NCBI GenBank assembly: GCA_951406725.2
Contig: OX597825.1
Span: 28,520,001-28,584,000, forward strand
Direction: 5' to 3'
Length of the DNA: 64,000 bases
Origin: Octopus vulgaris
Lineage: Eukaryota
The notes beneath the pieces were generated by a model, which was given only the letters and a program-made list of their open reading frames with translations, was not told where the DNA came from and searched no databases. Below, piece by piece: positions 1 to 58,196 of the stretch. The first letter of the stretch is position 1. Each line of letters begins with the position of its first letter. The translations under genes and the position numbers were made by a program.

Positions 1-1
1 G

Positions 2-3000
2 GCTATCAAATACAAAATTAACTTACGCAATGAATTTGTCTTTGGGGCAGTAAAAGATTTAAAACCGAAGAATTTGTATGACAGTAAGCTGAAATCATCG
101 TTGGAAGCAGTGAAAAGAACTAACTTGAAAGTAATTTTTCTGTTTGCTCCATTCCATATACAGCCAATCGTCTTTCGAGAAGCCTATCTTATGAACCTTT
201 CTTCTCTGCATGGATTCCAATGGGTTTTAATGAAAAAATACGCGCGAGAGTTTCCATTTGAGAACCATTCGGTTTGTAACAAAACATTAGAATGCACATT
301 AGCTTTTACTGGAACCTACCTCTTTGATTCGACCTACAATGTATCGGGTTACCAAACAGATAGTTGGAAACGAGTTCTTAATTATTATTTTAAAGAAGAC
401 CGTGTACTTTACAAAGGTGGAAGAGTTCGTCATAGGTCCTTTGAAATAGGAGCGTTAATGGGATTGGGTTATGACGCCGTGCACCTTTACGCTAAAGCGT
501 TAGCCATACTTCTCAATAAACGACTAACAATTAGAGGTAACAAAGTTAATTGGCTCATGCGCAAGACAACTATACATGGACTAACAGATAACGTATCTTT
601 AAATGCATACGGTGATAGAATTGGTTATTTCGGTTATCTGGCCCAAGTTAACCCAATCCCACGTTGGCCATATTTGCCGAAATCTAAAGTTATAACTTAC
701 GTAAAGTGTATTAAGAGATCGGAAGACGGTATTCAATTAGAAATACCTTACGAATCGGAAATACTTCCTCACAATAAAACTGCGGCACTGGTAGCATTTC
801 CTGTCAGTAAGGCACATAACACTAGACGATACATATCTTTATCGGGGATGGTTAGTCTCAATACACAAAAAATGATGCCAAAAGAGGGTGAAGATTGGCC
901 GCCAACCATTTTTATTCGGACAGAAAGTATAGTTCCACCATATTATTGCGTTCATGCCTGTGGATACAAATTAAAAGACCCCGGTAATATTAATGTTTTC
1001 GATCGAGGAATATGTCGTCCTGGTAACAAATGCGAATGCTTTGAAGGATTCGGGGGGAAGCATTGTCTCTCTGTTCAGTGCCATTGTTTACACGGCCTTT
1101 GCACTATTGAAGGTTCTTGCATATGTAATCCTGGTTATACAGGCCCCTCTTGTGGTGCAGCAATTTGTGAGGATTGTAATTTTGGTGTATGTGTAAAACC
1201 AGGTGTATGTGAATGCACTACTATAGTATATTTCGGTGAAAATTGTGCTATTCATATTTCATCCATCATTGTTCCAATATTATTTGCAGCACTTATTCTC
1301 ATTGGTATCTTTTATGTCGTGGCAGGAATAACTAGCTCGAAGACGAAAAGTATAATCTATCAAGACTGGATGATTGATTGGGACAACGTTACTGTACCTG
1401 AAGAATTAGGTATGGTAGGACAATCCAAGGGAATAATTAACAAAACGGTTGCAGCTTATAGATGGGACGATGAGAACTGGTATGTGAAAAAGATTAATAG
1501 TAAGACAATTCCTCCTGAAGATAAAAAGATTATTTCAGACATGGTCAAGTTAACTAAAACTAGACATTATAATCTAATTCGATACGGTGGATGCTGTTTG
1601 ACTTATCCTAACGTCAGTTTGTTCATGGAAATTGCTGACAAGGGGAGTATAGCGGATGTACTTGCCAATGAAACATTTGAGATCGGATGGGAATTTGGAT
1701 TTTCATTTTTAAAAGATATATGTTGCGGAATGGAATATTTGCATGACAAATCTGAAATCAAAAGCCATGGACGTCTGAAATCTTCCAACTGCTTGGTTGA
1801 TAAGCGCTGGACTGTACGTCTGTCAGGATTTGGTGCACCGTCTCTTCGTTATGGCAGCTACAGAATCCCAGAGTCTGAAGAAATGTCTGATTTAAAAGAT
1901 CTTTTTTGGACCGCACCCGAACTACTAAGGGATAACACAAATCTCGATGGAGTAAAGTCGGGCACACCGCAAGGAGATGTCTATTCATTTGCTATCGTTG
2001 CATGTGAAATTGCGACGAAGGTAAAACCATACCATTACGAACTGAAACATTTAAGTGAAAAAAGCATTTTAGATCTCATTAAAGATTCACATTCACGGGC
2101 CAATAAAGAAATACGACGTGTATGGGAGGGTATTGGTGGAGGTAAAATGATTTTTACGAGACCAATTTTAAGTGAAGATTTATTACCACACAGTAATCTA
2201 TCTAAGAAGCTGTTTAAAATAATGCTCGAAGAGTCTTGGAATGAGAAGGCATCGTCTCGACCGACTTTTAATAAGCTTAGCATCATTCTAAATGAAATGT
2301 ACCCCATAAAAGGAGAACTTATAGATAAATTAATCCAACTCTTGGAAACTTACTCCAATAATTTAGAAATGGTTGTAATAGAAAGAACCAGAGAACTAGA
2401 AGAAAAAAAAGCTAAAGCTGAGCAGCTATTGGGCCAGATGTTGCCCCCGAAAGTAGCTTGTGAACTGAAGCAAGTTGGTAAAGTGATACCGGAATTATTC
2501 GAAAATGCCACGGTATTCTTCAGTGATATCGTAAATTTTGACCGAATATGTAAAGAAAGTAAACCAATGGAAATCGTTGATTTTTTAAATGAAGTTTATA
2601 AAATATTTGACTCAGTTTTGGACGGCTATGATGTTTATAAAGTGGAAACCATCAGCGCTTCCTACATGGTAGTTAGTGGTATTCCAGAAAAGAATGGTGA
2701 TCGCCATGCAGGAGAAATTGCAACAATGGCTTTAGATCTGATGTCATATGCTACTCTACTCCATGTTCCCAACACGGAAAGTAATGTGCTACAATTACGA
2801 ATTGGAATGCATTCCGGCTCGGTAGTAAGTGGCGTGGTGGGGAAACTATTGCCTAGATTTTGTCTATTCGGAGACACCGTCAACACAGCTGCCAGAATGC
2901 AGTCTAGTTCTTATGCCTTACACATTCAAGTGAGCGAGACTACTGAAGCAATTCTTGATTCTTTAGGCGGTTATAAATTAGAATGTAGAGGGGAAAGAGA

Positions 3001-3115
3001 AGTAAGAGGTCGCGGATTAATGACAACGTACTGGCTGTGGGGTAAGGACACATTTATGAAAGAATTACCTGATATATCCCTAGCAGTCCCTCTCTCACAA
3101 CACACATTCAAATAA
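2..3115 (+). CDS. Receptor-type guanylyl cyclase-like protein, copy 1 (5'-partial, no lesion in the visible part)
   Basis: The frame is open from base 2 to TAA at 3113-3115. It encodes the C-terminal part of an ANF-receptor-like domain (GYDAVHLYAKA, IHGLTDNVSLNAYGDRIG), EGF repeats, a TM helix (IIVPILFAALILIGIFYVV), a kinase-homology domain (HGRLKSSNCLVD, LFWTAPELLR, GDVYSFAIV), a coiled coil (LETYSNNLEMVVIERT) and a cyclase ([28 protein letters not shown]). The G6 run at 1052-1057 is in frame. By homology the start lies ~1.9 kb upstream of the window. Confidence 0.93.
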   Translation, partial: AIKYKINLRNEFVFGAVKDLKPKNLYDSKLKSSLEAVKRTNLKVIFLFAPFHIQPIVFREAYLMNLSSLHGFQWVLMKKYAREFPFENHSVCNKTLECTLAFTGTYLFDSTYNVSGYQTDSWKRVLNYYFKEDRVLYKGGRVRHRSFEIGALMGLGYDAVHLYAKALAILLNKRLTIRGNKVNWLMRKTTIHGLTDNVSLNAYGDRIGYFGYLAQVNPIPRWPYLPKSKVITYVKCIKRSEDGIQLEIPYESEILPHNKTAALVAFPVSKAHNTRRYISLSGMVSLNTQKMMPKEGEDWPPTIFIRTESIVPPYYCVHACGYKLKDPGNINVFDRGICRPGNKCECFEGFGGKHCLSVQCHCLHGLCTIEGSCICNPGYTGPSCGAAICEDCNFGVCVKPGVCECTTIVYFGENCAIHISSIIVPILFAALILIGIFYVVAGITSSKTKSIIYQDWMIDWDNVTVPEELGMVGQSKGIINKTVAAYRWDDENWYVKKINSKTIPPEDKKIISDMVKLTKTRHYNLIRYGGCCLTYPNVSLFMEIADKGSIADVLANETFEIGWEFGFSFLKDICCGMEYLHDKSEIKSHGRLKSSNCLVDKRWTVRLSGFGAPSLRYGSYRIPESEEMSDLKDLFWTAPELLRDNTNLDGVKSGTPQGDVYSFAIVACEIATKVKPYHYELKHLSEKSILDLIKDSHSRANKEIRRVWEGIGGGKMIFTRPILSEDLLPHSNLSKKLFKIMLEESWNEKASSRPTFNKLSIILNEMYPIKGELIDKLIQLLETYSNNLEMVVIERTRELEEKKAKAEQLLGQMLPPKVACELKQVGKVIPELFENATVFFSDIVNFDRICKESKPMEIVDFLNEVYKIFDSVLDGYDVYKVETISASYMVVSGIPEKNGDRHAGEIATMALDLMSYATLLHVPNTESNVLQLRIGMHSGSVVSGVVGKLLPRFCLFGDTVNTAARMQSSSYALHIQVSETTEAILDSLGGYKLECRGEREVRGRGLMTTYWLWGKDTFMKELPDISLAVPLSQHTFK

Positions 3116-12298: not shown

Positions 12299-12628
12299 TT
12301 TGTTTCTTCATTTGACCATTCCGAAATATAACAAATCCTTTCTTAAATTTTTCTTTTATCAGAGACGCTACTCTAAAACAATTTCATATGGAATTCAAAT
12401 TACGAAAGAAGAAAAAAAAAAAAAAAATAAACGCTTATTATCAGATCAAAAGTGAGTGTTTAACATATGAAGTTGCGTTTAAGAAAGACGTTGATAGATT
12501 TTTTGTTATTAGATTTATTTGTTTAATTGCACAGGCGCTCTGGCTAGCATTTAGTTTTTCATGTTGAAATAGAAAAATTACAATGCTTTTAAACGACAAA
12601 TGATTATTCATGAAATATCCGATGAACT

Positions 12629-15600
12629 ATGACAATTGCATGCCTCATTCTTATCTCTACTTGGATGTTTGTGACAGGACAATTGGAATTATCATTTCTA
12701 CAATTTCACGAACCTCCCGCAATTATACCCGATGATCCTTCAAAGTTATACTATTCAGTGCCACTCAATCAAATGATCAGCAAACCGATCATTGTCGTTG
12801 CGTCTTATTCAAACGAGACACCTTTTTCTGAGGGAGAAGTCAATATGACGGCTACAATAGACAGCTATGCTGTTTCGCCATCTGGCGAGATTAATACCAA
12901 AGATACTTGGGCAGAAAGTGGCGGCCAACTGTGTCAGAAATCAGCATGGTGGTTGAATTATCCGGAGCGATATAACAGACATCTTGCGAAAACTCGTTGT
13001 CATACACCGCATTCTTCCATTCTAATGAAATCACGAATTTTTAATGGAAAACTCATATTTGATTGGATTTACCATAAACATACCATTGTACCTCCATCCA
13101 TGCGAATGTTCAGGATCGAAATACCAGATTATAAAATATACGTCGACTCTTTCCCAATATTTGTAACCAAACCTGCACACCGGTTAGTTGTAACGAAACA
13201 ACCACCTTTATATGTTTTTGCTAATATCGATTTTGATGTTGAGGTTGAAATAAGAGATGAAAGAGGGAATACTCTCATAAATGGTCTTGATTCGGTAGCA
13301 ATTGTGGAAATGACAATTCCTTACAATTATAAACGTTTCTATGCTGACCCAGAGAGAGAAATGATGATTGATTACACTAAAATTCGAATGGATGGAAAGG
13401 ATGTAACAATTGATTTTAAAACACGAGATATAATAATGCGTCAACAAGCAAATTATGGTAGGGCAAAATTTACTGGAGTTCGAATTTTAGACGTTACAGA
13501 AAATTTGCAACTAAATATTACTTTAACCATGGCAAGAGACCCATGGAGCAGAATTCCTGCTTGCTCAGAATGTTTCCTTGACATCGAACGTGCAAGACAG
13601 TTGTCTAGTGATAGAAAGTTTATTACTTTCCAACGATTAACAACTGAGGAAGAAGAAAAGATTCTACCTGTTGTCTTCACGAGGAATTTCTCGGTATTAT
13701 ATTTAATGGTAGATCGCATTGTTCTGGACAACTTCTCAAAAAGTATGTATTATAGACTTAAAAATAATGGGGGAATTGTAGAAGTACCTATCACTTGTCC
13801 TTTACTTTACGGCATGAGTATTTTAGCACTAGATGCTAGAGGTCATCGGATCTATTCAGGCCCTCACTCCACATTACGCCTATCAATTAATACAATCCCA
13901 GAAAATATATGCTTTTCAAAACATAGCACCGTGAGAATGTCAGATGGAAAAATCCACTTATTGGTATCTATTTGTGAAGTAGTCAATTCCGTCAAATTAA
14001 GAATAACTGTAACTAGTAGGAACAATATTTATTTCATTACTCCGGCTTTTCGTATAACAGGAAACATTACAATTGGACATTTTGGTGACCTTCGATTTAG
14101 TGGTGATGGAAAGGAAATTGACTCACATATCAATTCTTTTATACGATTCGCAATCAATGATGTTAATAATGGTATTATTGTCCCAGAATTAAGAAAGAAA
14201 GGATTGAAATTATATTTGAAGTCGTATAATATTCCAAACGAAAAATCTGCAACCTATAGAAAACTTGGGGATTTGGAAACTATTTCAACTAATATTCATT
14301 TGGTTATAAGTTCAATTCCAGGAAATGTTGCTAATGTTTTTAGTCCGTTCATAGTGAAGTTTAGGATACCTTATATTTCGACGATCGATTCTACCAGAGA
14401 ATACATCGATAAAGATATATACCCATTGTATAATAGTATAAGTTGGTCAGAGGAGGCGTTCTATAATTCAGTGTTTCAATGTGCTAAAGATAGGTTTTGG
14501 ACTGACATTGTAATCCTTCGATATCACGATATTAATTTAACTGGTTTATTCTATTCTGTGGCTACCAAATACAAAATTGACTTACGCAATGAATTTGTCT
14601 TTGGGGCAGTAAAAGATTTAAAACCGAAGAACTTGTATGACAGGAAGCTGAAATCATCGTTGGAAGCAGTGAAAAGAACTAACTTGAAAGTAATTTTTCT
14701 GTTTGCTCCATTCCATATACAGCCAATCGTCTTTCGAGAAGCCTATCTTATGAACCTTTCTTCTCTGCATGGATTCCAATGGGTTTTAATGAAAAAATAC
14801 GCGCGAGAGTTTCCATTTGAGAACCATTCGGTTTGTAACAAAAAATTAGAATGCACATTAGCTTTTACTGGAACCTACCTCTTTGATTCGACCTACAACG
14901 TATCGGGTTACCAAACAGATAGTTGGAAACGAGTTCTTAATTATTATTTTAAAGAAGACCGTGTACTTTACAAAGGTGGAAGAGTTCGTCATAGGTCCTT
15001 TGAAATAGGAGCGTTAATGGGATTGGGTTATGACGCCGTGCACCTTTACGCTAAAGCGTTTGCCAAACTTCTCAATAAACGACTAACATTTAGCGGTAAC
15101 AAGGTTAATTGGCTCATGCGCAAGACAACTATACATGGACTAACAGATAAAGTATCTTTAAATGCATACGGTGATAGAATTGGTTATTTCGGTTATCTGG
15201 CCCAAGTTAACCCAATCCCACGTTGGCCATATTTGCCGAAATCTAAAGTTATATCTTACGTAAAGTGTATTAAGAGATCGGAAGACGGTACTCAATTAGA
15301 AATACCTTACGAATCGGAAATACTTCCTCACAATAAAACTGCGGCACTGGTAGCATTTCCTGTCGTTAAGGCACATAACACTAGACGATACATATCTTTA
15401 TCAGGGATGGTTAGTCTCAATACACAAAAAATGATGCCAAAAGAGGGTGAAGATTGGCCGCCAACCATTTTTATTCGGACAGAAAGTATAGTTCCACCAT
15501 ATTATTGCGTTCATGCTTGTGGATACAAATTAAAAGACCCCGGTAATATTAATGTTTTCGATCGAGGAATATGTCGTCCTGGTAACAAATGCGAATGCTT

Positions 15601-17675
15601 TGAAGGATTCGGGGGGGAAGCATTGTCACTTTGTTCAGTGCCATTGTTTACACGGCCTTTGCACTATTGAAGGTTCTTGCATATGTAATCCTGGTTATAC
15701 AGGCCCCTCTTGTGGTGCAGCAATTTGTGAGGATTGTAATTTTGGTGTATGTGTAAAACCAGGTGTATGTGAATGCACTACTACAGTATATTTCGGTGAA
15801 AATTGTGCTATTCATATTTCATCCATCATTGTTCCAATATTATTTGCAGCACTTATTCTCATTGGTATCTTTTATGTCGTGGCAGGAATAACTAGCTCGA
15901 AGACGAAAAGTATAATCTATCAAGACTGGATGATTGATTGGGACAACGTTACTGTACCTGAAGAATTAGGTATGGTAGGACAATCCAAGGGAATAATTAA
16001 CAAAACGGTTGCAGCTTATAGATGGGACGATGAGAACTGGTATGTAAAAAAGATTAATAGTAAGACAATTCCTCCTGATGATAAAAAGATTATTTCAGAC
16101 ATGGTCAAGTTAACTAAAACTAGACATTATAATCTAATTCGATACGGTGGATGCTGTTTGACTTATCCTAACGTCAGTTTGTTCATGGAAATTGCTGACA
16201 AGGGGAGTATAGCGGATGTACTTGCCAATGAAACATTTGAGATCGGATGGGAATTTGGATTTTCATTTTTAAAAGATATATGTTGCGGAATGGAATATTT
16301 GCACGACAAATCTGAAATCAAAAGCCATGGACGTCTGAAATCTTCCAACTGCTTGGTTGATAAGCGCTGGACAGTACGTCTGTCAGGATTTGGTGCACCG
16401 TCTCTTCGTTATGGCAGCTACAGAATCCCAGAGTCTGAAGAAATGGCTGATTTAAAAGATCTTTTTTGGACCGCACCCGAACTACTGAGGGATAACACAA
16501 ATCTCGATGGAGTAAAGTCGGGCACACCGCAAGGAGATGTCTATTCATTTGCTATCGTTGCGTGTGAAATTGTGACGAAGGTAAAACCATACCATTACGA
16601 ACTGAAACATTTAAGTGAAAAAAGCATTTTAGATCTCATTAAAGATTCACATTCACGGGCCAATAAAGAAATACGACATGTATGGGAGAGTATTGGTGGA
16701 GGTAAAATGATTTTTACGAGACCAATTTTAAGTGAAGATTTATTACCAAACAGTAATCTATCTAAGAAGCTGTTTAAAAAAATGCTCGAAGAGTCTTGGA
16801 ATGAGATGGCATCGTCACGACCGACTTTTAATAAGCTTAGCATCATTCTAAATCAAATGTACCCCATAAAAGGAGAACTTATAGATAAATTAATCCAACT
16901 CTTGGAAACTTACTCCAATAATTTAGAAATGGATGTAATAGAAAGAACCAGAGAACTAGAAGAAAAAAAAGCTAAAGCTGAGCAGCTATTGGGCCAGATG
17001 TTGCCCCCGAAAGTAGCTTGTGAACTGAAACAAGTTGGTGAAGTGATACCGGAATTATTCGAAAATGCCACGGTATTCTTCAGTGATATCGTGAATTTTG
17101 GCCGAATATGTAAAGAAAGTAAACCAATGGAAATCGTTGATTTTTTAAATGAAGTTTATAAAATATTTGACTCAGTTTTGGACGGCTATGATGTTTATAA
17201 AGTGGAAACCATCAGCGCTTCCTACATGGTAGTTAGTGGTATTCCAGAAAAGAATGGTGATCGCCATGCAGGAGAAATTGCAACAATGGCTTTAGATCTG
17301 ATGTCATATGTTACTCTACTCCATGTTCCCAACACGGAAAGTAATGTGCTACAATTACGAATTGGAATGCATTCCGGCCCGGTAGTAAGTGGCGTGGTGG
17401 GGACTCTATTGCCTAGATTTTGTCTATTCGGAGACACCGTCAACACAGCTTCCAGAATGCAGTCTAGTTCTTATGCCTTACACATTCAAGTGAGCGAGAA
17501 TACTGCAGCAATTCTTGATTCTTTAGGCGGTTATAAATTAGAATGTAGAGGGGAAAGAGAAGTAAGAGGTCGCGGATTAATGACAACGTACTGGCTGTGG
17601 GGTAAGGACACATTTATGAAAGAATTACCTGATATATCCCTAGCAGTCCCTCTCTCACAACACACATTCAAATAA
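12629..17675 (+). pseudogene. Receptor guanylyl cyclase-like gene, copy 2; full length with a single +1 frameshift (G7 at 15611-15617); could be an intact gene if the run is miscalled
   Basis: ORF 12629-15670 (signal peptide MTIACLILISTWMFVTG plus ectodomain) and ORF 15552-17675 (EGF, TM, KHD, cyclase) join into 1681 aa if one G is removed. No introns. Confidence 0.88.
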
Positions 17676-18772: not shown

Positions 18773-23705
<4,933 letters not shown>

Positions 23706-31100: not shown

Positions 31101-34100
31101 ATGACAATTGCATGCCTCATTCTTATCTCTACTTGGATGTTTGTGACAGGACACTTGGAATTATCATTTCTACAATTTCACGAACCTCCTGCAATTATAC
31201 CCGATGATCCTTCAAAGTTATACTATTCAGTGCCACTCAATCAAATGATCAGCAAACCGATCATTGTCGTTGCCGTTTATTCAAACGGGACACCTTTTTC
31301 TGAGGGAGAAGTCAATACGACGGCTACAATAGACAGCTATGCTGTTTTGCCCTCTGGCGAGATTAATACCAAAGATACTTGGGCAGAAAGTGGCGGCCAA
31401 CTGTGTCAGAAATCAGCATGGTGGTTGAATTATCCGGAGCGATATAACAGACATCTTGCGAAAACTCGTTGTCATACACCGCATTCTTCCATTCTAATGA
31501 AATCACGAATTTTTAATGGAAAACTCATATTTGATTGGATTTACCATAAACATACCATTGTACCTCCATCCATGCGAATGTTCAGGATCGAAATACCAGA
31601 TTATAAAATATACGTCGACTCTTTCCCAATATTTGTAACCAAACCAGCACACCGGTTAGTTGTAACGAAACAACCACCTTTATATGTTGTGTCTAATGAC
31701 GATTTTGATGTTGAGGTTGAAATAAGAGATGAAGAAGGAAATACTCTCATAAATGGTCTTGATTCGGTAGCAATTGTGGAAATGACAATTCCTTACAATT
31801 ATAAACGTTTCTATGCTGACCCAGAGAGAGAAATGATGATTGATTACACTAAAATTCGAATGGATGGAGAGAATGTAACAATTGATTTTAAAACACGAGA
31901 TATAATAATGCGTCAACAAGCAAATTATGGTAAGGCAAAATTTACTGGAGTTCGAATTTTAGACGTTACACAAAATTTGCAACTAAATATTACTTTAACC
32001 ATGGCAAGAGACCCATGGAGCAGAATTCCTGCTTGCTCAGAATGTTTCCTTGACATCGAACGTGCAAGACAGTTGTCCAGTGACAGAAAGTTTATTACTT
32101 TCCAACGATTAACAACTGAGGAAGAAGAAAAGATTCTACCTGTTGTCTTCACGAGGAATTTCACGGTAATATATTTAATGGTAGATAGCATTGCTCTGGA
32201 CAACTTCTCAAAAAGTATGTATTCTAAACTTAAAAATAATGGGGGAATTGTAGAAGTACCTATCACTTGTCCTTTACTTTACGGCATGAGTATTTTAGCA
32301 CTAGATGCTATAGGTCATCGGATCTATTCAGGCCCTGACTCCACATTACGCCTATCTATTAATACAATCCCAGAAAATATATGTTTTTCAAAACATAGCA
32401 CCGTGAGAATGTCAGATGGAAAAATCCACTTATTGGTATCTATTTGTGAAGTAGTCAATTCCGTCAAATTAAGAATAACTGTAACTAGTATGAACGCTAT
32501 TTATTTCATTACTCCGGCTTTTCGTATAACAGGAAACATTACAATTGGACATTTTGGTGACCTTCGATTTAGTGGTGATGGAAAGGAAATTGACTCACAT
32601 ATCAATTCTTTTATACGATTCGCAATCAATGATGTTAATAATGGTATTATTGTCCCAGAATTAAGAAAGAAAGGATTGAAATTATATTTGAAGTCGTATA
32701 ATATTCCAAACGAAAAATCTGCAACCTATAGAAAACTTGGGGATTTGGAAACTATTTCAACTAATATTCATTTGGTTATAAGTTCAATTCCAGGAAATGT
32801 TGCTAATGTTTTTAGTCCGTTCATAGTGAAGTTTAGGATACCTTATATTTCGACGATCGATTCTACCAGAGAATACATCGATAAAGATATATACCCATTG
32901 TATAATAGTATAAGTTGGTCAGAGGAGGCGTTCTATAATTCAGTGTTTCAATGTGCTAAAGATAGGTTTTGGACTGACATTGTAATCCTTCGATATCACG
33001 ATATTAATTTAACTGGTTTATTCTATTCTGTGGCTATCAAATACAAAATTGACTTACACAATGAATTTGTCTTTGGGGCAGTAAAAGATTTAAAACCGAA
33101 GAACTTGTATGACAGGAAGCTGAAATCATCGTTGGAAGCAGTGAAAAGAACTAACTTGAAAGTAATCTTTCTGTTTGCTCCATTCCATATACAGCCAATC
33201 GTCTTTCGAGAAGCCTATCTTATGAACCTTTCTTCTCTGCATGGATTCCAATGGGTTTTAATGAAAAAATACGCGCGAGAGTTTCCATTTGAGAACCATT
33301 CGGTTTGTAACAAAAAATTAGAATGCACATTAGCTTTTACTGGAACCTACCTCTTTGATTCGACCTACAATGTATCGGGTTACCAAACAGATAGTTGGAA
33401 ACGAGTTCTTAATTATTATTTTAAAGAAGACCGTGTACTTTACAAAGGTGGAAGAGTTCGTCATAGGTCCTTTGAAATAGGAGCGTTAATGGGATTGGGT
33501 TATGACGCCGTGCACCTTTACGCTAAAGCGTTTGCCAAACTTCTCAATAAACGACTAACATTTAGCGGTAACAAGGTTAATTGGCTCATGCGCAAGACAA
33601 CTATACATGGACTAACAGATAAAGTATCTTTCAATGCATACGGTGATAGAATTGGTTATTTCGGTTATCTGGCCCAAGTTAACCCAATCCCACGTTGGCC
33701 ATATTTGCCGAAATCTAAAGTTATAACTTACGTAAAGTGTATTAAGAGATCGGAAGACGGTATTCAATTAGAAATACCTTATGAATCGGAAATACTTCCT
33801 CACAATAAAACTGCGGCACTGGTAGCATTTCCTGTCGGTAAGGCACATAACACTAGACGATACATATCTTTATCGGGGATGGTTAGTCTCAATACACAAA
33901 AAATGATGCCAAAAGAGGGTGAAGATTGGCCGCCAACCATTTTTATTCGGACAGAAAGTATAGTTCCACCATATTATTGCGTTCATGCCTGTGGATACAA
34001 ATTAAAAGACCCCGGTAATATTAATGTTTTCGATCGAGGAATATGTCGTCCTGGTAACAAATGCGAATGCTTTGAAGGATTCGGGGGAAGCATTGTCACT

Positions 34101-36145
34101 CTGTTCAGTGCCATTGTTTACACGGCCTTTGCACTATTGAAGGTTCTTGCATATGTAATCCTGGTTATACAGGTCCCTCTTGTGGTGCAGCAATTTGTGA
34201 GGATTGTAATTTTGGTGTATGTGTAAAACCAGGAGTATGTGAATGCACTACTATAGTATATTTCGGTGAAAATTGTGCTATTCATATTTCATCCATCATT
34301 GTTCCAATATTAGTTGCAGCACTTATTCTCATTAGTATATCTTATGTCGTGGCAGGAATAACTAGCTCGAAGACGAAAAGTATAATTTATCAAGACTGGA
34401 TGATTGATTGGGACAACGTTACTGTACCTGAAGAATTAGGTATGGTAGGACAATCCAAGGGAATAATTAACAAAACGGTTGCAGCTTATAGATGGGACGA
34501 TGAGAACTGGTATGTAAAAAAGATTAATAGTAAGAAAATTCCTCCTGATGATAAAAAGATTATTTCAGACATGGTCAAGTTAACTAAAACTAGACATTAT
34601 AATCTGATTCGATACGGTGGATGCTGTTTGACTCATCCTAATGTCAGTTTGTTCATGGAAATTGCTGACAAGGGGAGTATAGCGGATGTACTTGCCAATG
34701 AAACATTTGAGATCGGATGGGAATTTGGATTTTCATTTTTAAAAGATATATGTTGCGGAATGGAATATTTGCACGACAAATCTGAAATCAAAAGCCATGG
34801 ACGTCTGAAATCTTCCAACTGCTTGGTTGATAAGCGCTGGACAGTACGTCTGTCAGGATTTGGTGCACCGTCTCTTCGTTATGGCAGCTACAGAATCCCA
34901 GAGTCTGAAGAAATGGCTGATTTAAAAGATCTTTTTTGGACCGCACCCGAACTACTGAGGGATAACACAAATCTCGATGGAGTAAAGTCGGGCACACCGC
35001 AAGGAGATGTCTATTCATTTGCTATCGTTGCGTGTGAAATTGCGACGAAGGTAAAACCATACCATTACGAACTGAAACATTTAAGTGAAAAAAGCATTTT
35101 AGATCTCATTAAAGATTCACATTCACGGGCCAATAAAGAAATACGACGTGTATGGGAGAGTATTGGTGGAGGTAACATGATTTTTACAAGACCAATTTTA
35201 AGTGAAGATTTATTACCAAACAGTAATCTATCTAAGAAGCTGTTTAAAAATATGCTCGAAGAGTCTTGGAATGAGAAGGCATCGTCACGACCGACTTTTA
35301 ATAAGCTTAGCATCATTCTAAATCAAATGTACCCCATAAAAGGAGAACTTATAGATAAATTAATCCAACTCTTGGAAACTTACTCCAATAATTTAGAAAT
35401 GGTTGTAATAGAAAGAACCAGAGAACTAGAAGAAAAAAAAGCTAAAGCTGAGCAGCTATTGGGCCAGATGTTGCCCCCGAAAGTAGCTTGTGAACTGAAA
35501 CAAGTTGGTGAAGTGATACCGGAATTATTCGAAAATGCCACGGTATTCTTCAGTGATATCGTAAATTTTGGCCGAATATGTAAAGAAAGTAAACCAATGG
35601 AAATCGTTGATTTTTTAAATGAAGTTTATAAAATATTTGACTCAGTTTTGGACGGCTATGATGTTTATAAAGTGGAAACCATCAGCGCTTCCTACATGGT
35701 AGTTAGTGGTATTCCAGAAAAGAATGGTGATCGCCATGCAGGAGAAATTGCAACAATGGCTTTAGATCTGATGTCATATGTTACTCTACTCCATGTTCCC
35801 AACACGGAAAGTAATGTGCTACAATTACGAATTGGAATGCATTCCGGCCCGGTAGTAAGTGGCGTGGTGGGGAAACTATTGCCTAGATTTTGTCTATTCG
35901 GAGACACCGTCAACACAGCTGCCAGAATGCAGTCTAGTTCTTATGCCTTGCACATTCAAGTGAGCGAGAATACTGCAGCAATTCTTGATTCTTTAGGCGG
36001 TTATAAATTAGAATGTAGAGGGGAGAGAGAAGTAAGAGGTCGCGGATTAATGACAACGTACTGGCTGTGGGGTAAGGACACATTTATGAAAGAATTACCT
36101 GATATATCCCTAGCAGTCCCTCTCTCACAACACAAATTCAAATAA
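31101..36145 (+). pseudogene. Receptor guanylyl cyclase-like gene, copy 3; full length with a single -1 frameshift (G5 at 34083-34087); could be an intact gene if the run is miscalled
   Basis: ORFs 31101-34226 and 34349-36145. The total span of 5045 bp is the intact length minus 1. Confidence 0.88.
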
Positions 36146-45443: not shown

Positions 45444-48400
45444 ATGACAATTGCATGCCTCATTCTTATCTCTACTTGGATGTTTGTGACAGGACAATTG
45501 GAATTATCATTTCTACAATTTCACGAACCTCCAGCAATTATACCCGATGATCCTTCAAAGTTATACTATTCAGTGCCACTCAATCAAATGATCAGCAATC
45601 CGATCATTGTCGATGCCTTTCATTCAAACGGGACACCTTTTTCTGGGGGAGAAATCAATACGACGGCTACAATAGACAGCTATGCTGTTTCGCCATCTGG
45701 CGAGATTAATAACAAAGATACTTGAGCAGAAAGTGGCGGCCAACTGTGTCAGAAATCAGCATGGTGGTTGAATTATCCGGAGCGATATAACAGACATCTT
45801 GCGAAAACTCGTTGTCATACACCGCATTCTTCCATTCTAATGAAATCACGAATTTTTAATGGAAAACTCATATTTGATTGGATTTACCATAAACATACCA
45901 TTGTACCTCCATCCATGCGAATGTTCAGGATCGAAATACCAGATTATAAAATATACTTCGACTCTTTCCCAATATTTGTAACCAAACCTGCACACCAGTT
46001 ATTTATAACGAAACAACCACCTGTAACAGTTATGGCTAATCACGATTTTGATGTTGAGGTTGAAATAAGAGATGAAGAAGGGAATACTCTCATAAATGGT
46101 CTTGATTCGGTAGCAATTGTGGAAATGACAATTCCTTACAATTATAAACGTTTCTATGCTGACCCAGAGAGAGAAATGATGATTGATTACACTAAAATTC
46201 GAATGGATGGAGAGGATGTAACAATTGATTTTAAAACACGAGATATAATAATGCGTCAACAAGCAAATTATGGTAAGGCAAAATTTACTGGAGTTCGAAT
46301 TTTAGACGTTACACAAAATTTGCAACTAAATATTACTTTAACCATGGCAAGAGACCCATGGAGCAGAATTCCTGCTTGCTCAGAATGTTTCCTTGACATC
46401 GAACGTGCAAGACAGTTGTCCAGTGACAGAAGGTTTATTACTTTCCAACGATTAACAATTGAGGAAGAGGAAAAGATTCTACCTGTTGTCTTCACGAGGA
46501 ATTTCTCAGTACATTATCAAATTCTGAATAAAGTTGATATGGACACCTCATCAAAAAGTATGTATTCTAAACTTAAAACTAATGAAAATGTTGTAGAGGT
46601 GCCTATTAGTTGTCCTTTACTTAACGGCATAAGTATTTTTGCAATGGATTTCATACACCGTCGGATCCATTCAGTCCCTGACTCCATATTACGCCTAAAT
46701 ATTAATACAATCCAAAAAAATATGTTTGTCAAAGGATTACACTAGGAATATGTCAGAAGGAAAAGCTCTCGTATTTGTATCTATATGTGAGGTAGTCAAC
46801 TCCGACAAACTGATAATAACTTACGATGGTCCACCTACTGTTACTTACAGAACTCCAGCTTTTCGTATAATAGGAAACATTACAATTGGACATTTTGGTG
46901 ACCTTCGATTTAGTGGTGATGGAAAGGAAATTGACTCACATATCAATTCTTTTATACGATTCGCAATCAATGATGTTAATAATGGTATTATTGTCCCAGA
47001 ATTAAGAAAGAAAGGATTGAAATTATATTTGAAGTCGTATAATATTCCAAACGAAAAATCTGCAACCTATAGAAAACTTGGGGATTTGGAAACTATTTCA
47101 ACGAATATTCATTTGGTTATAAGTTCCATTCCAGCAAATGTTGCTACTGTTTTTAGTCTGTTCTTAGTGAGGTTCAGGATACCATATATTTCGACGATCG
47201 ATTCTACCAGACAACACATCGATAAAGATATATACCCATTGTATTATTGTATACGTTGGTCAGAGGTGGTGTTCTATAATTCAGTGTTTCAATGTGCTAA
47301 AGATAAGTTTTGGACTGACATTGTAATCCTTCGATATCACGATATTAATTTAACTGGTTTATTCAAATGCTTTGAAGGATTCGGGCGGAAGCATTGTCAC
47401 TCTGTTCAGTGCCATTGTTTACACGGCCTTTGCACTATTGAAGGTTCTTGCATATGTAATCCTGGTTATACAGGCCCCTCTTGTGGTGCAGTAATTTGTG
47501 AGGATTGTAATTTTGGTGTATGTGTAAAACCAGGTGTATGTGAATGCACTACTATAGTATATTTCGGTGAAAATTGTGCTATTCATGTTTCATCCATCAT
47601 TGTTCCAATATTATTTGCAGCACTTATTCTCATTGGTATCTTTTATGTCGTGGCAGGAATAACTAGCTCGAAGACGAAAAGTATAATCTATCAAGACTGG
47701 ATGATTGATTGGGACAACGTTACTGTACCTGAAAAATTAGGTATGGTAGGACAATCCAAGGGAATAATTAACAAAACGGTTACAGCTCATAGATGGGACG
47801 ATGAGAACTGGTATGTAAAAAAGATTAATAGTAAGACAATTCCTCCTGATGATAAAAAGATTATTTCAGACATGGTCAAGTTAACTAAAACTAGACATTA
47901 TAATCTGATTCGATACGGTGGATGATGTTTGACTTATCCTAACGTCAGTTTGTTCATGGAAATTGCTGACAAGGGGAGTATAGCGGATGTACTTACCAAT
48001 GAAACATTTGAGATCGGATGGGAATTTGTATTTTCATTTTTAAAAGATATATGTTGCGGAATGGAATATTTGCACGACAAATCTGAAATCAAAAGCCATG
48101 GACGTCTGAAATCTTCCAACTGCTTGGTTGATAAGCGCTGGACTGTACGTCTGTCAGGATTTGGTGCACCGTCTCTTCGTTATGGCAGCTACAGAATCCC
48201 AGAGTCTGAAGAAATGGTTGATTTAAAAGATCTTTTTTGGACCGCACCCGAACTACTGAGGGATAACACAAATCTCGATGGAGTAAAGTCGGGCACACCG
48301 CAAGGAGATGTCTATTCATTTGCTATCATTGCGTGTGAAATTGCGACGAAGGTAAAACCATACCATTACGAACTGAAACATTTAAGTGAAAAAAGCATTT

Positions 48401-49444
48401 TAGATCTCATTAAAGATTCACATTCACGGGCCAATAAAGAAATACGACGTGTATGGGAGAGTATTGGTGGAGGTAAAATGATTTTTACGAGACCAATTTT
48501 AAGTGAAGATTTATTACCAAACAGTAATCTATCTAAGAAGCTGTTTAAAAAAATGCTCGAAGAGTCTTGGAATGAGAAGGCATCGTCACGACCGACTTTT
48601 AATAAGCTTAGCATCATTCTAAATCAAATGTACCCCATTAAAGGAGAACTTATAGATAAATTAATCCACCTCTTGGAAACTTATTCCAATAATTTAGAAA
48701 TGGTTGTAATAGAAAGAACCAGAGAAATAGAAGAAAAAAAAGCTAATGCTGAGCAGCTATTGGGCCAGATGTTGCCCCCGAAAGTAGCTTGTGAACTGAA
48801 GCAAGTTGGTGAAGTGATACCGGAATTATTCGAAAATGCCACGGTATTCTTCAGTGATATCGTGAATTTTGGCCGAATATGTAAAGAAAGTAAACCAATG
48901 GAAATCGTTGATTTTTTAAATGAAGTTTATAAATTATTTCACTCAGTTTTGGACGGCTATGATGTTTATAAAGTGGAAACCATCAGCGCTTCCTACATGG
49001 TAGTTAGTGGTATTCCAGAAAAGAATGGTGATCGCCATGCAGGAGAAATTGCAACAATGGCTTTAGATCTGATATCATGTTACTCTACACCATGTTCCCA
49101 ACACGGAAAGTAATGTGCTACAATTACGAATTGGAATGCATTCCGGCCCGGTAGTAAGTGGCGTGGTGGGGAAACTATTGCCTAGATTTTGTCTATTCGG
49201 AGACACCGTCAACACAGCTTCCAGAATGCAGTCTAGTTCTTATGCCTTACACATTCAAGTGAGCGAGAATACTGCAGCAATTCTTGATTCTTTAGGCGGT
49301 TATAAATTAGAATGTAGAGGGGAAAGAGAAGTAAGAGGTCGCGGATTAATGACAACGTACTAGCTGTGGGGTAAGGACACATTTATGAAAGAATTACCTG
49401 ATATATCCCTAGCAGTCCCTCTCTCACAACACAAATTCAAATAA
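45444..49444 (+). pseudogene. Receptor guanylyl cyclase-like pseudogene, copy 4
   Basis: TGG>TGA at 45723-45725; 2-bp deletion at ~46722; ~1041-bp in-frame deletion at ~47364; TGC>TGA at 47923-47925; 2-bp deletion at ~49077; TGG>TAG at 49361-49363. Confidence 0.93.
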
Positions 49445-54569: not shown

Positions 54570-55266
54570 GGCGATAAAATCTTTATTATGGTCAAACTGA
54601 TCGTGGAAAGACAAAGACATTACGAGACAAACAAATACAAAAATCTCATATGAGTTCGAATGAGCATTAAGCTAAAAATGTACTGAAAAAATATTCTATG
54701 TAACGATTAATTTTTACCTTTGACTATAACGTTTTAAACAAATTTGACTATAACTTTAAAAAATCGGAAATAAAGCAAGAAAACGAATAAAAGCTCAAAC
54801 AGATCGAACCCGGCAGCCTATAAGGCCCAACAACTATCTTTTCCTTTCCTCAATGATTAAACTGGGTTACTAACACCCACCTATCTCATCACATCCTTCC
54901 ATCGTTTCTCGTATTCACTCGGTGGCAGGGTCTTCCTCTCAACCCCATCTTGCTCTTCAGATGGTATGTGAAATAGGACAGCAAACCGGGGCCAGAGACG
55001 AAGGAGCCAGTCACAGAACCTTCCATTCTAGTCCTCCAAACACACTCTTTCAGTACTGCAAACGTACAGTAAAAACATGCCTTACCTTCTTTTGAGTGTC
55101 CAGTTGGCGGTATCATCTTTATCATAGATCCACCCGACAGCTGTACTCGTCCCAGATTCGACAGCACGTGTTCAACGTAACATTTCAAGCTAGATAGCTT
55201 CCGGCATTCTAGAAAAGCGTGCTAGACAGTCTCATTTTCCAGCCCACATCTTGGACACGGCCGTGG
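54570..55266 (-). mobile_element. Tx1/L1-clade LINE remnant, unit 4, cut by the deletion that fuses it to gene copy 5
   Basis: Homologous to 8330-9004, then switches abruptly to cyclase-gene sequence. Confidence 0.83.
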
Positions 55267-58196
55267 CACTATCAAATTCTGAATAAAGTTGATATGGACA
55301 CCTCATCAAAAAGTATGTATTCTAAACTTAAAACTAATGAAAATGTTGTAGAGGTGCCTATTAGTTGTCCTTTACTTAACGGCATAAGTATTTTTGCAAT
55401 GGATTTCATACACCGTCGGATCCATTCAGGTCCTGACTCCATATTACGCCTAAATATTAATACAATCCAAAAAAATATATGTTTGTCAAAGGATTACACT
55501 AGGAATATGTCAGAAGGAAAAACTCTCGTATTTGTATCTATATGTGAGGTAGTCAACTCCGTCAAACTGATAATAACTTACGATGGTCCACCTACTGTTA
55601 CTTACAGAACTCCAGCTTTTCGTATAATAGGAAACATTACAATTGGACATTTTGGTGACCTTCGATTTAGTGGTGATGGAAAGGAAATTGACTCACATAT
55701 CAATTCTTTTATACGATTCGCAATCAATGATGTTAATAATGGTATTATTGTCCCAGAATTAAGAAAGAAAGGATTGAAATTATATTTGAAGTCGTATAAT
55801 ATTCCAAACGAAAAATCTGCAACCTATAGAAAACTTGGGGATTTGGAGACTATTTCAACTAATATTCATTTGGTTATAAGTTCCATTCCAGGAAATGTTG
55901 CTACTGTTTTTAGTCTGTTCTTAGTGAAGTTTATGATACCTTATATTTCGACGATCGATTCTACAAGAGAACACATCGATAAAGATATATACCCATTGTA
56001 TAATAGTATAAGTTGGTCAGAGGTGGTGTTCTATAATTCAGTGTTTCAATGTGCTAAAGATAGGTCTTGGACTGACATTGTAATCCTTCGATATCACGAT
56101 ATTAATTTAACTGGTTTATTCAAATGCTTTGAAGGATTCGGGCGGAAGCATTGTCACTCTGTTCAGTGCCATTGTTTACACGGCCTTTGCACTATTGAAG
56201 GTTCTTGCATATGTAATCCTGGTTATACAGGCCCCTCTTGTGGTGCAGCAATTTGTGAGGATTGTAATTTTGGTGTATGTGTAAAACCAGGAGTATGTGA
56301 ATGCACTACTATAGTATATTTCGGTGAAAATTGTGCTATTCATATTTCATCCATCATTGTTCCAATATTATTTGCAGCACTTATTCTCATTGGTATCTTT
56401 TATGTCGTGGCAGGAATAACTAGCTCGAAGACGAAAAGTATAATCTATCAAGACTGGATGATTGATTGGGACAACGTTACTGTACCTGAAAAATTAGGTA
56501 TGGTAGGACAATCCATACCTAATAATTAACAAAACGGTTGCAGCTTATAGATGGGACGATGAGAACTGGTATGTAAAAAAGATTAATAGTAAGACAATTC
56601 CTCCTGATGATAAAAAGATTATTTCAGACATGGTCAAGTTAACTAAAACTAGACATTATAATCTGATTCGATACGGTGGATGATGTTTGACTTATCCTAA
56701 TGTCAGTTTGTTCATGGAAATTGCTGACAAGGGGAGTATAGCGGATGTACTTGCCAATGAAACATTTGAGATCGGATGGGAATTTGGATTTTCATTTTTA
56801 AAAGATATATGTTGCGGAATGGAATATTTGCACGACAAATCTGAAATCAAAAGCCATGGACGTCTGAAATCTTCCAACTGCTTGGTTGATAAGCGCTGGA
56901 CTGTACGTCTGTCAGGATTTGGTGCACCGTCTCTTCGTTATGGCAGCTACAGAATCCCAGAGTCTGAAGAAATGGCTGATTTAAAAGATCTTTTTTGGAC
57001 CGCACCCGAACTACTGAGGGAAAACACAAATCTCGATGTAGTAAAGTCGAGCACACCGCAAGGAGATGTCTATTCATTTGCTATCGTTGCGTGTGAAATT
57101 GCGACGAAGGTAAAACCATACCATTACGAACTGAAACATTTAAGTGAAAAAAGCATTTTAGATCTCATTAAAGATTCACATTCACGGGCCAATAAAGAAA
57201 TACGACGTGTATGGGAGAGTATTGGTGGAGGTAAAATGATTTTTACAAGACCAATTTTAAGTGAAGATTTATTACCAAACAGTAATCTATCTAAGAAGCT
57301 GTTTAAAAAAATGCTCGAAGAGTCTTGGAATGAGAAGGAATCTTCACGACCGACTTTTAATAAGCTTAGCATCATTCTAAATCAAATGTACCCCATTAAA
57401 GGAGAACTTATAGATAAACTAATCCACCTCTTGGAAACTTACTCCAATAATTTAGAAATGGTTGTATTAGAAAGAACCAGAGAACTAGAAGAAAAAAAAG
57501 CTAAAGCTGAGCAGCTATTGGGCCAGATGTTGCCCCCGAAAGTTGCTTGTGAACTGAAACAAGTTGGTGAAGTGATACCGGAATTATTCGAAAATGCCAC
57601 GGTATTCTTCAGTGATATCGTGAATTTTGGCCGAATATGTAAAGAAAGTAAACCAATGGAAATCGTTGATTTTTTAAATGAAGTTTATAAATTATTTGAC
57701 TCAGTTTTAGACGGCTATGATGTTTATAAAGTGGAAACCATCAGCGCTTCCTACATGGTAGTTAGTGGTATTCCAGAAAAGAATGGTGATCGCCATGCAG
57801 GAGAAATTGCAACAATGGCTTTAGATCTGATGTCATATGGTACTCTACTCCATGTTCCCAACACGGAAAGTAATGTGCTACAATTACGAATTGGAATGCA
57901 TTCCGGCCCGGTAGTAAGTGGCGTGGTGGGGAAACTATTGCCTAGATTTTGTCTATTCGGAGACACCGTCAACACAGCTTCCAGAATGCAGTCTAGTTCT
58001 TATGCCTTACACATTCAAGTGAGCGAGAATACTGCAGCAATTCTTGATTCTTTAGGCGGTTATAAATTAGAATGTAGAGGGGAAAGAGAAGTAAGAGGTC
58101 GCGGATTAATGACAACGTACTGGCTGTGGGGTAAGGACACATTTATGAAAGAATTACCTGATAGCAGTCCCTCTCTCACAACACAAATTCAAATAA
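55267..58196 (+). pseudogene. Receptor guanylyl cyclase-like pseudogene, copy 5 (5'-truncated)
   Basis: Lacks the upstream region and the first ~356 codons. It shares the ~1.04-kb deletion (~56121) and the TGA (56681-56683) with copy 4, and has a +1 frameshift at ~56516 and an 8-bp deletion at ~58161 that extends the last ORF to 58243. Confidence 0.93.

Follow-up and report, generated by a model that had tools for sequence, protein, structure and literature searches.

A 64-kb window of the Octopus vulgaris genome (64,000 nucleotides; GenBank assembly GCA_951406725.2, contig OX597825.1, positions 28,520,001 to 28,584,000, forward strand) proves on self-comparison to be a tandem array of five single-exon receptor guanylyl cyclase genes. 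The domain order of each gene is three N-terminal modules, an ANF domain, EGF repeats, a transmembrane segment (TM), a kinase-like domain and a cyclase; a Pfam search of modules 1-3 returned no match. The array units are about 9-18 kb long, and most of each unit agrees with the others to within 1-3%. The third N-terminal module (module 3), which lies just ahead of the ANF domain, occurs in the window as two types, A and B, and these appear to be old lineages carried in young repeat units as a result of segmental exchange. The five copies are listed below in window coordinates; codon numbers throughout are those of copy 2.

1..3115, plus strand: copy 1, whose 5' part lies beyond the window; frame open from the ANF domain to the cyclase
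12629..17675, plus strand: copy 2, with signal peptide, modules 1-3, ANF_receptor domain, EGF repeats, TM, kinase-like domain and cyclase; an extra G near 15611
31101..36145, plus strand: copy 3, laid out as copy 2; one G fewer in the equivalent G-run near 34082
45444..49444, plus strand: copy 4, a pseudogene
55267..58196, plus strand: copy 5, a 5'-truncated pseudogene

The ANF_receptor domain (PF01094) is recognized in copies 2 and 3 (E values 1e-13 and 5.9e-14) and is largely deleted from copies 4 and 5. It is followed by a kinase-homology domain (PF07714, E 6e-28) and then a class III cyclase (PF00211, E 3e-58), and the best relatives of solved structure in the Protein Data Bank are GC-C and NPR-A (E ~1e-61). 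The putative signal peptide and single TM are hydrophobic stretches judged by eye from the translations. The same ANF_receptor ectodomain, one TM, kinase-like domain, coiled coil and class III cyclase make up the known receptor guanylyl cyclases (NPR-A/GC-A, GC-C, the sea-urchin speract and resact receptors and the GCY proteins of Caenorhabditis elegans). The window genes differ from these in adding about 460 N-terminal residues (modules 1-3) and EGF repeats before the membrane, in having a single-exon coding sequence, and in an Asp-to-Ala change in the cyclase that is described below. The closest proteins are P0011 of O. sinensis (92-99% over the gene body), P0069 of O. vulgaris, P0001 and P0010 of O. 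bimaculoides and P0002 and P0003 of Argonauta, and the layout is common to six further full-length relatives (P0004-P0009, 35-43% identity) and to P0013. P0069 carries the database label 'speract receptor-like', which is a label only.

The module-3 cassette

Four copies of module 3, and no more, were found in the window by tblastn, and none of 37 candidates examined proved to be a short module-3 fragment.

13697..14041, plus strand: module 3 type A of copy 2, codons 357-471
32169..32513, plus strand: module 3 of copy 3, a variant of type A; 9 of 115 residues differ from copy 2, by 10 nonsynonymous and 2 synonymous steps
46512..46854, plus strand: module 3 type B of copy 4, codons 357-471, with a frameshifting 2-nucleotide (nt) deletion at about 46719
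55267..55611, plus strand: module 3 type B of copy 5, in an open frame; its first base is the truncation point of copy 5

Between copies 2 and 5, 95 of 345 nt differ in codons 357-471, compared with 46 of 2566 aligned nt elsewhere (Fisher p 1e-58). In 150-base windows the differences climb from 0-13 to 30-45 and drop to 0-1 directly after the block, and a two-breakpoint scan of copy 2 against copy 4 places the best borders at codons 355-357 and 470-472, with codon 477 nearly equal. Divergence is not uniform along the gene, nor is it mostly synonymous in the module, which differs by about 70 nonsynonymous and 25 synonymous steps.

A sequence-only reading of this DNA had described a cassette at 46512-46860 and 55267-55615 that existed as two types only, with 61 of 114 residues identical between copies 2 and 5, no indels, three Cys kept and nearly identical flanks. 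Its residue count is correct (62 of 115 if the last Thr is counted) and the three Cys are indeed retained in both types, with the right ends of the cassettes moved to 46854 and 55611. Copies 2 and 5 align without gaps, but the cassette of copy 4 contains the 2-nt deletion; likewise, the flanks are as similar as claimed, except that copy 5 has no left gene flank and is joined there to a fragment of a long interspersed nuclear element (LINE). The restriction to two types is true of the window but not of the family, which has at least four (A, A', B and C), with mosaics. Copies 4 and 5 are not independent examples. The stop at codon 1175, the 1041-nt deletion and 7 of 15 informative sites are common to both, and type B is therefore represented by one lineage in the window.

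The borders had also been said to coincide with the third Ig-like module. In an AlphaFold model that used 14 sequences (pLDDT 75.7 on average and about 90 for module 3, type A), codons ~358-481 form a beta-sandwich with one helix, and structure matches treat codons ~180-359 and ~358-481 as two separate Ig-like domains (Z 7-9.5, identities 8-17%), so that the left border falls in a domain linker. The right border lies inside the last strand of module 3 in the model. The word 'third' presumes that module 1 is one Ig-like domain; module 1 is beta-rich in the model and is barely covered by the fold search. Type B folded alone from its single sequence gave a poor model (pLDDT 42) with seven strands in the same order, and Foldseek with the three-module model returned only multi-domain matches of low TM-score. 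Structural matches to module 3 (Z 7-8.9, root-mean-square deviation 2.5-3.3 Å over 90-103 residues) include Ig-like domains of GH2 enzymes, the filamin domain of TRIM3 and S-layer proteins. The resemblance is to Ig-like sandwiches of the Big_1, filamin and SMCHD1 types, families that are also named by Atlas leads scoring 0.76-0.83, below 0.9; identities are 8-14% and no hit stands out. Module 3 is thus predicted to be a seven-strand sandwich of Ig-like fold, which is a shared fold and not an assignment to a family or function. A JHBP/BPI-like identity proposed by Atlas (0.85-0.90, with an unnamed top hit at 0.92) disagrees with the structure search and was set aside.

The age of module 3 relative to its surroundings is indicated by silent changes. 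Among codons whose residue is unchanged, a silent change is present in 11 of 62 in the module and 14 of 827 outside (p 2e-7), and maximum-likelihood (ML) estimates of synonymous divergence (dS) are 0.32-0.45 in the module and 0.025-0.032 elsewhere, a difference of about 10-fold. Spacer blocks diverge by 0.9-3.4% in all eight comparisons. Types A and B share 52-57% of residues with each other and 50-57% with either of two O. bimaculoides paralogues, while the other extracellular blocks of these paralogues match at 73-93%. A tenfold rise in silent divergence is beyond what selection on the amino acids of a recent duplicate can produce; recombination is needed to place so old a segment in so young a unit. 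Local hypermutation or a shift in composition was considered and rejected; all 12 change types are present, and GC content (33.6%) and GC content at third codon positions (28.7%) do not differ between the two types. From the right border of the module onward, copies 2 and 3 are identical over 539 nt (~14030-14566 and ~32500-33040; p~0.025), which may mark a recent conversion tract; they are the only one of the 10 copy pairs to fall under 0.05.

Module-3 types beyond the window

The Octopus genes belong to two older lineages, G1 (the array copies, P0011 and P0001) and G2 (P0069 and P0010). In trees of the ANF lobe and of the EGF-TM region, orthologues group across species: P0069 pairs with P0010, and P0001 joins the array copies and P0011. 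G1 and G2 are nearly the same in modules 1-2, in the remainder of the ANF domain and in much of the kinase-like domain. In the module-3 tree, by contrast with this grouping, copies 2 and 3 join P0069 (support 100) against copies 4 and 5 with P0011 (support 93). The gene-body tree is rejected for module 3 (delta logL 71.7; 11 sequences) because the distant paralogue model P0069 and some array copies both carry type A. The module 3 of P0069 is a variant of type A, 77% identical to copy 2, and that of P0011 is a mosaic, B-type in its 3' half and different in its 5' half (type C). Five placements of the types relative to the O. bimaculoides modules were compared by the approximately unbiased (AU) test, with 5000 replicates, a number flagged as few. 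Pairing A with G1 and B with G2 fails (p 0.02); pairing A with the distant-paralogue lineage passes (p 0.11) and is not the best tree.

Public gene models for the locus look faulty: P0069 is fused, P0001 skips two internal stretches and P0011 starts within module 3. That P0069 begins with a G1-like cyclase suggests that G2 adjoins the array. The paralogue pairs P0002/P0003 and P0001/P0010, together with P0069, are near-identical in parts of the ectodomain in three octopod species. The EGF-TM-juxtamembrane region differs strongly between paralogues (~50-57%) and is a second block that resists homogenisation.

Contigs from 4 of 24 listed sequencing runs were aligned to copy 4, and the following results cover the listed contigs. 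Runs X1 and X4 contain contigs that match type B exactly and enter it from the normal left flank (46476-46616, 0 differences), and A-like, A'-like (like P0069) and C-like (like P0011) paths occur beside type B. In these runs the B and C contigs have the 2-nt gap filled, and contigs extend into an undeleted ANF domain. Codon 94, a stop in copy 4, is not covered in X4 and encodes Trp in both X1 and X18, and an X18 contig that matches P0001 departs from the reference at 46512, the identical border. Since B contigs in other animals are free of the lesions checked, type B is not a product of pseudogene decay. Run X17, which was guessed to be RNA, covers pieces of modules 1-2 and of the EGF region and not module 3, and is uninformative on expression.

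Catalytic site and decay of the array copies

Four residues beyond the guanine-binding Glu, at the site of the second metal-binding Asp of the cyclase, all five window copies have Ala; the Asp is kept in all 11 other family records covering the site.

48988..48990, plus strand: Ala codon in place of the second metal-binding Asp, copy 4; equivalents at 2657, 17217, 35687 and 57746

The first metal-binding Asp is present, as are the guanine-specifying Glu and Cys and the Asn and Arg of helix 4 in all five copies. As outlined for the structure of a Chlamydomonas cyclase, the second Asp is an invariant metal ligand supplied by one monomer, with the Cys, Asn and Arg coming from the other (PMC2576301). 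All five copies are probably inactive as homodimers; they belong to the receptor guanylyl cyclase family by domain content but, as judged from these residues, should not be filed as active homodimers. Because Ala is absent from the 11 other records, the change may be a recent loss of function, and the array may go back to a single ancestral copy that was inactive or half-active. An obligate heterodimeric receptor cyclase, in which each monomer gives part of one catalytic site, is formed by ODR-1 and DAF-11 in C. elegans, according to the account in PMC5225109. The window copies resemble one such monomer in that they keep the residues of one side (Glu, Cys, Asn and Arg) and are without the Asp that comes from the other (PMC2576301), and by analogy they could complete one catalytic site together with an intact partner. 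Unlike that of ODR-1/DAF-11, the octopus pairing is hypothetical.

Against such a partnership, the private changes of the five copies are in a neutral ratio overall; copy 3 alone shows constraint in them, with a synonymous excess of 11:9 (p 0.003 before correction for 15 tests). The G-run contains 7 G in copy 2 (~15611), 5 in copy 3 (~34082) and 6 in copy 1. It is the sole frame break in copies 2 and 3 and is opposite in sign in the two, and these differences are possibly consensus or sequencing errors. Copy 4 has stops at codons 94, 1175 and 1655, two 2-nt deletions and the in-frame 1041-nt deletion (at 47364/47366). Copy 5 is without a signal peptide and modules 1-2 and has the 1041-nt deletion (56121/56123), the codon-1175 stop and further indels. 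In both copies the 1041-nt deletion takes out the greater part of the ANF domain, leaving its first lobe joined directly to the EGF repeats. The two copies are 1.8% apart in the gene and 3.4% in the spacer, each with private lesions. The B copies here are pseudogenes, and what the window mostly preserves is the decaying trace of a process that once acted on functional genes.

54872..55266, minus strand: LINE 3' fragment, fused to module 3 of copy 5; its counterparts in other units match zf-RVT

At the junction 55266|55267 this fragment meets the first base of module 3, with a 4-nt microhomology between the parental sequences. The chance that a breakpoint falls within 5 nt of a border is 0.2-0.4%, a figure that applies to a single breakpoint where the window has several. 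One guess, from this one case, is that the junction was left by a recombination intermediate that stalled where similarity ends. Neither the junction nor the 1041-nt deletion is among the listed contigs of three DNA runs.

Origin and possible role of the module-3 types

Module 3 is the fastest-changing of the three N-terminal modules. Its average ratio of nonsynonymous to synonymous rates (dN/dS) is 0.75-1.0, and the ratio outside is about 0.5 for three pairs and 1.0 for copy 2 versus copy 4. A site model applied to copies 2, 3 and 5 assigns ~21% of sites a dN/dS near 7 (M2a vs M1a p 0.003), and none of 69 null simulations was as extreme as the observed value. Nine codons differ at all three positions. 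Seven of the eight pairs tested show an enrichment of replacements in module 3, the comparison within type A among them and the Argonauta pair being the exception; the comparison blocks for three of these pairs were chosen after the homogenised blocks were known. With conservation of hydrophobicity as a proxy for burial, 9 of 31 core-like columns differ between A and B, all with BLOSUM62 scores of at least 0, while 35 of 64 variable columns differ, with a mean score of -0.7 and mostly radical changes. This pattern fits a maintained fold with a fast-changing surface and would not amount to proof of adaptive change; the indications of positive selection on module 3 are suggestive only.

Taken together, the data point to an octopus receptor guanylyl cyclase family in concerted evolution in which module 3 is likely an old, exchanged block; the anatomy, the age contrast, the tree conflict and the existence of four types were observed directly. 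Unequal crossing-over and gene conversion would homogenise the units wherever sequences are alike, leaving a few blocks old. Module 3 would have drifted or been driven apart until, beyond ~20% difference, it was excluded from conversion except via its flanks. Exchange tracts would then begin and end in the similar flanks, so that the module is passed from one gene body to another more or less whole, mosaics inside it arising more rarely. Old, fast-evolving types would in this way have been kept and then recently reshuffled. This recombination mechanism is inferred from these observations, as is the suggestion that selection favoured type diversity. The sequence-only reading had offered two explanations, a swap by gene conversion from a distant paralogue or sparing by diversifying selection, and these are compatible with each other. 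The swap gains from the ~10-fold silent divergence and the tree conflict, with its donor and direction left undecided by the trees. Amino-acid selection alone cannot account for the raised silent divergence, and the site-model signal is lost when multi-nucleotide changes are allowed.

A narrower version would have type A introduced once, by gene conversion from the distant P0010/P0069 lineage into some array copies, with B and C native and no continuing selection. It is a special case of the explanation above and not its opposite, and is possible though on the doubtful side. Type A is common to P0069 and copies 2 and 3; two sites near the end of the module pair B with P0001 and A with P0010 and none is reversed; the opposite pairing is the one that the AU test rejects; and B/C contigs are deeper than A contigs (146 vs 68 in X1 and 253 vs 120 in X4, depth being rough). 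However, the best tree unites the two O. bimaculoides modules, single-sided diagnostic sites are mixed, and A, A', B and C diverge at the same patches, which goes beyond one event. It is unlikely that module 3 is instead a loosely constrained spacer domain changing neutrally, with type B the form taken by a decaying pseudogene. An average dN/dS of ~1, the pseudogene state of both window B copies, the loss of the catalytic Asp from all five copies and the neutral private changes of four of the five would all agree with such a history, but decay cannot yield 27% divergence in one 345-nt block with 2% around it. In addition, type B of copy 5 differs from A without a stop or gap, the changes in core columns are all conservative, the B contigs of other animals are free of the lesions checked, and P0011, which has a B-type half, retains the Asp and a complete ANF domain. 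The surface may nevertheless have come under relaxed constraint with no positive selection.

Somewhat less probable still is that the types were alleles kept by balancing selection at one recognition locus and later captured side by side by unequal crossing-over, as a heterogeneous duplication. The sharp island of old divergence within young units agrees with this, runs labelled as two different organisms contain the same types, and mosaics such as P0011 exist. The types are also found, however, on the distant paralogue model, and three of them occur within the single run X1, above the limit of two alleles. Mis-assembly of copy 5, its junction or type B is very improbable, since type B recurs letter for letter in two other runs and in P0011, and copies 4 and 5 have diverged in gene and spacer and acquired private lesions. 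The position of the copy-5 breakpoint on the first base of the module, the missing contigs for the junction and the deletion, and the opposite one-base errors in one G-run, which suggest consensus noise, are points in its favour, and an artefact limited to the copy-5 junction is possible.

Several results weigh against exchange of an old module under concerted evolution, or narrow what can be drawn from it. Four of the five placements pass the AU test, and the donor and direction of exchange are accordingly not fixed. P0069 is a fused gene model that starts with the neighbouring G1-like cyclase, which lowers confidence in its linkage of module to gene body. The contigs give no copy number, drop rare variants and do not link the module in phase to lesions far from it. 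With differences at just 3 of 29 clean four-fold sites, the ML dS may be inflated by multi-hit codons. The p value for positive selection rises to 0.20 once multi-nucleotide changes are allowed, two Argonauta paralogues are without a module-3 excess (2/116 vs 8/805), and A differs from B in 9 of the 20 columns that distant relatives conserve. Finally, private changes over 674 shared codons stand at 15 synonymous to 48 nonsynonymous, a neutral ratio.

Conversion among the clustered protocadherins spares particular cadherin repeats. These genes and the MHC/Ig-type families are likewise tandem paralogues homogenised by conversion while certain ectodomain residues diversify, as outlined for protocadherins in PMC1885805 (citing Noonan 2004 and Wu 2005). 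The octopus protein is unrelated to protocadherins, and it is whole genes and not variable exons that are repeated, in few copies, so that the array is analogous to such systems and not a member of them. The evolutionary mechanism is a known, textbook pattern, and the cassette alone would be no surprise to a specialist. The receptor architecture is apparently undescribed; no paper on this locus or architecture is among those listed by the literature searches, and supplementary gene tables could mention these loci. The value of the locus lies in a receptor guanylyl cyclase with three extra modules outside Pfam, the third of which is exchanged between paralogues.

The position of module 3 tip-ward of the ANF domain and its surface turnover suggest that it perhaps acts as an accessory domain in the recognition of a protein or glycan, modulating the cGMP signal, although this assignment is tentative; the term 'ligand-binding', which had been applied to it, should be read in the same conditional sense. 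Among the parts of this orphan receptor, module 3 would be the likeliest to face a partner that changes; its natural variants are A, A', B and C. Receptor cyclases are described as sperm chemoreceptors in echinoderms and a coral (PMC6826153, PMC6787079) and as expanding in lineage-specific ways (PMC1435932), and peptide egg attractants are listed for Octopus vulgaris (PMC6826153). A role in gametes is a first guess made on these grounds; if the gene is sperm-expressed, it would be a candidate for octopus gamete recognition. A more elaborate and distinctly improbable scheme would have a polymorphic modular recognition system in which module 3 is a swappable specificity domain (for example in sperm-egg or sperm-oviduct contact), its types common across species and shuffled by recombination, and in which the Asp-to-Ala copies are half-active partners of an intact paralogue, the pairing setting specificity combinatorially as in ODR-1/DAF-11. 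If the window copies are dead, the lesson is one for annotation, the locus having been collapsed or fused in gene models P0069, P0001 and P0011.

Two smaller variable patches lie 5' of module 3.

45597..45662, plus strand: variable patch in module 1, codons 52-73; nearly all changes alter the amino acid
45996..46043, plus strand: variable patch where module 2 begins, codons 185-200; copy 4 has several residues in common with P0069

In the module-2 patch copy 4 resembles P0069 and copies 2 and 3 resemble P0001, so that the patches and the module-3 type assort independently. Repeats present 4-12 times in many large unnamed proteins (P0016-P0067) show a weak match to the start of module 2, hinting that this module may derive from a widespread Ig-like repeat. 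About 95 bases 5' of the start codon, at 12520-12535 and equivalent positions, is a pyrimidine-rich run ending in CAG; its resemblance to a splice acceptor suggests an intron in the 5' untranslated region ahead of the single coding exon. Older reverse-transcriptase fragments lie on the minus strand of each spacer, and only the spacer after copy 2 has an open LINE reverse-transcriptase frame of 758 codons (20177-22453; RVT_1, E 1.5e-30), which is flanked by long AT-rich microsatellites.

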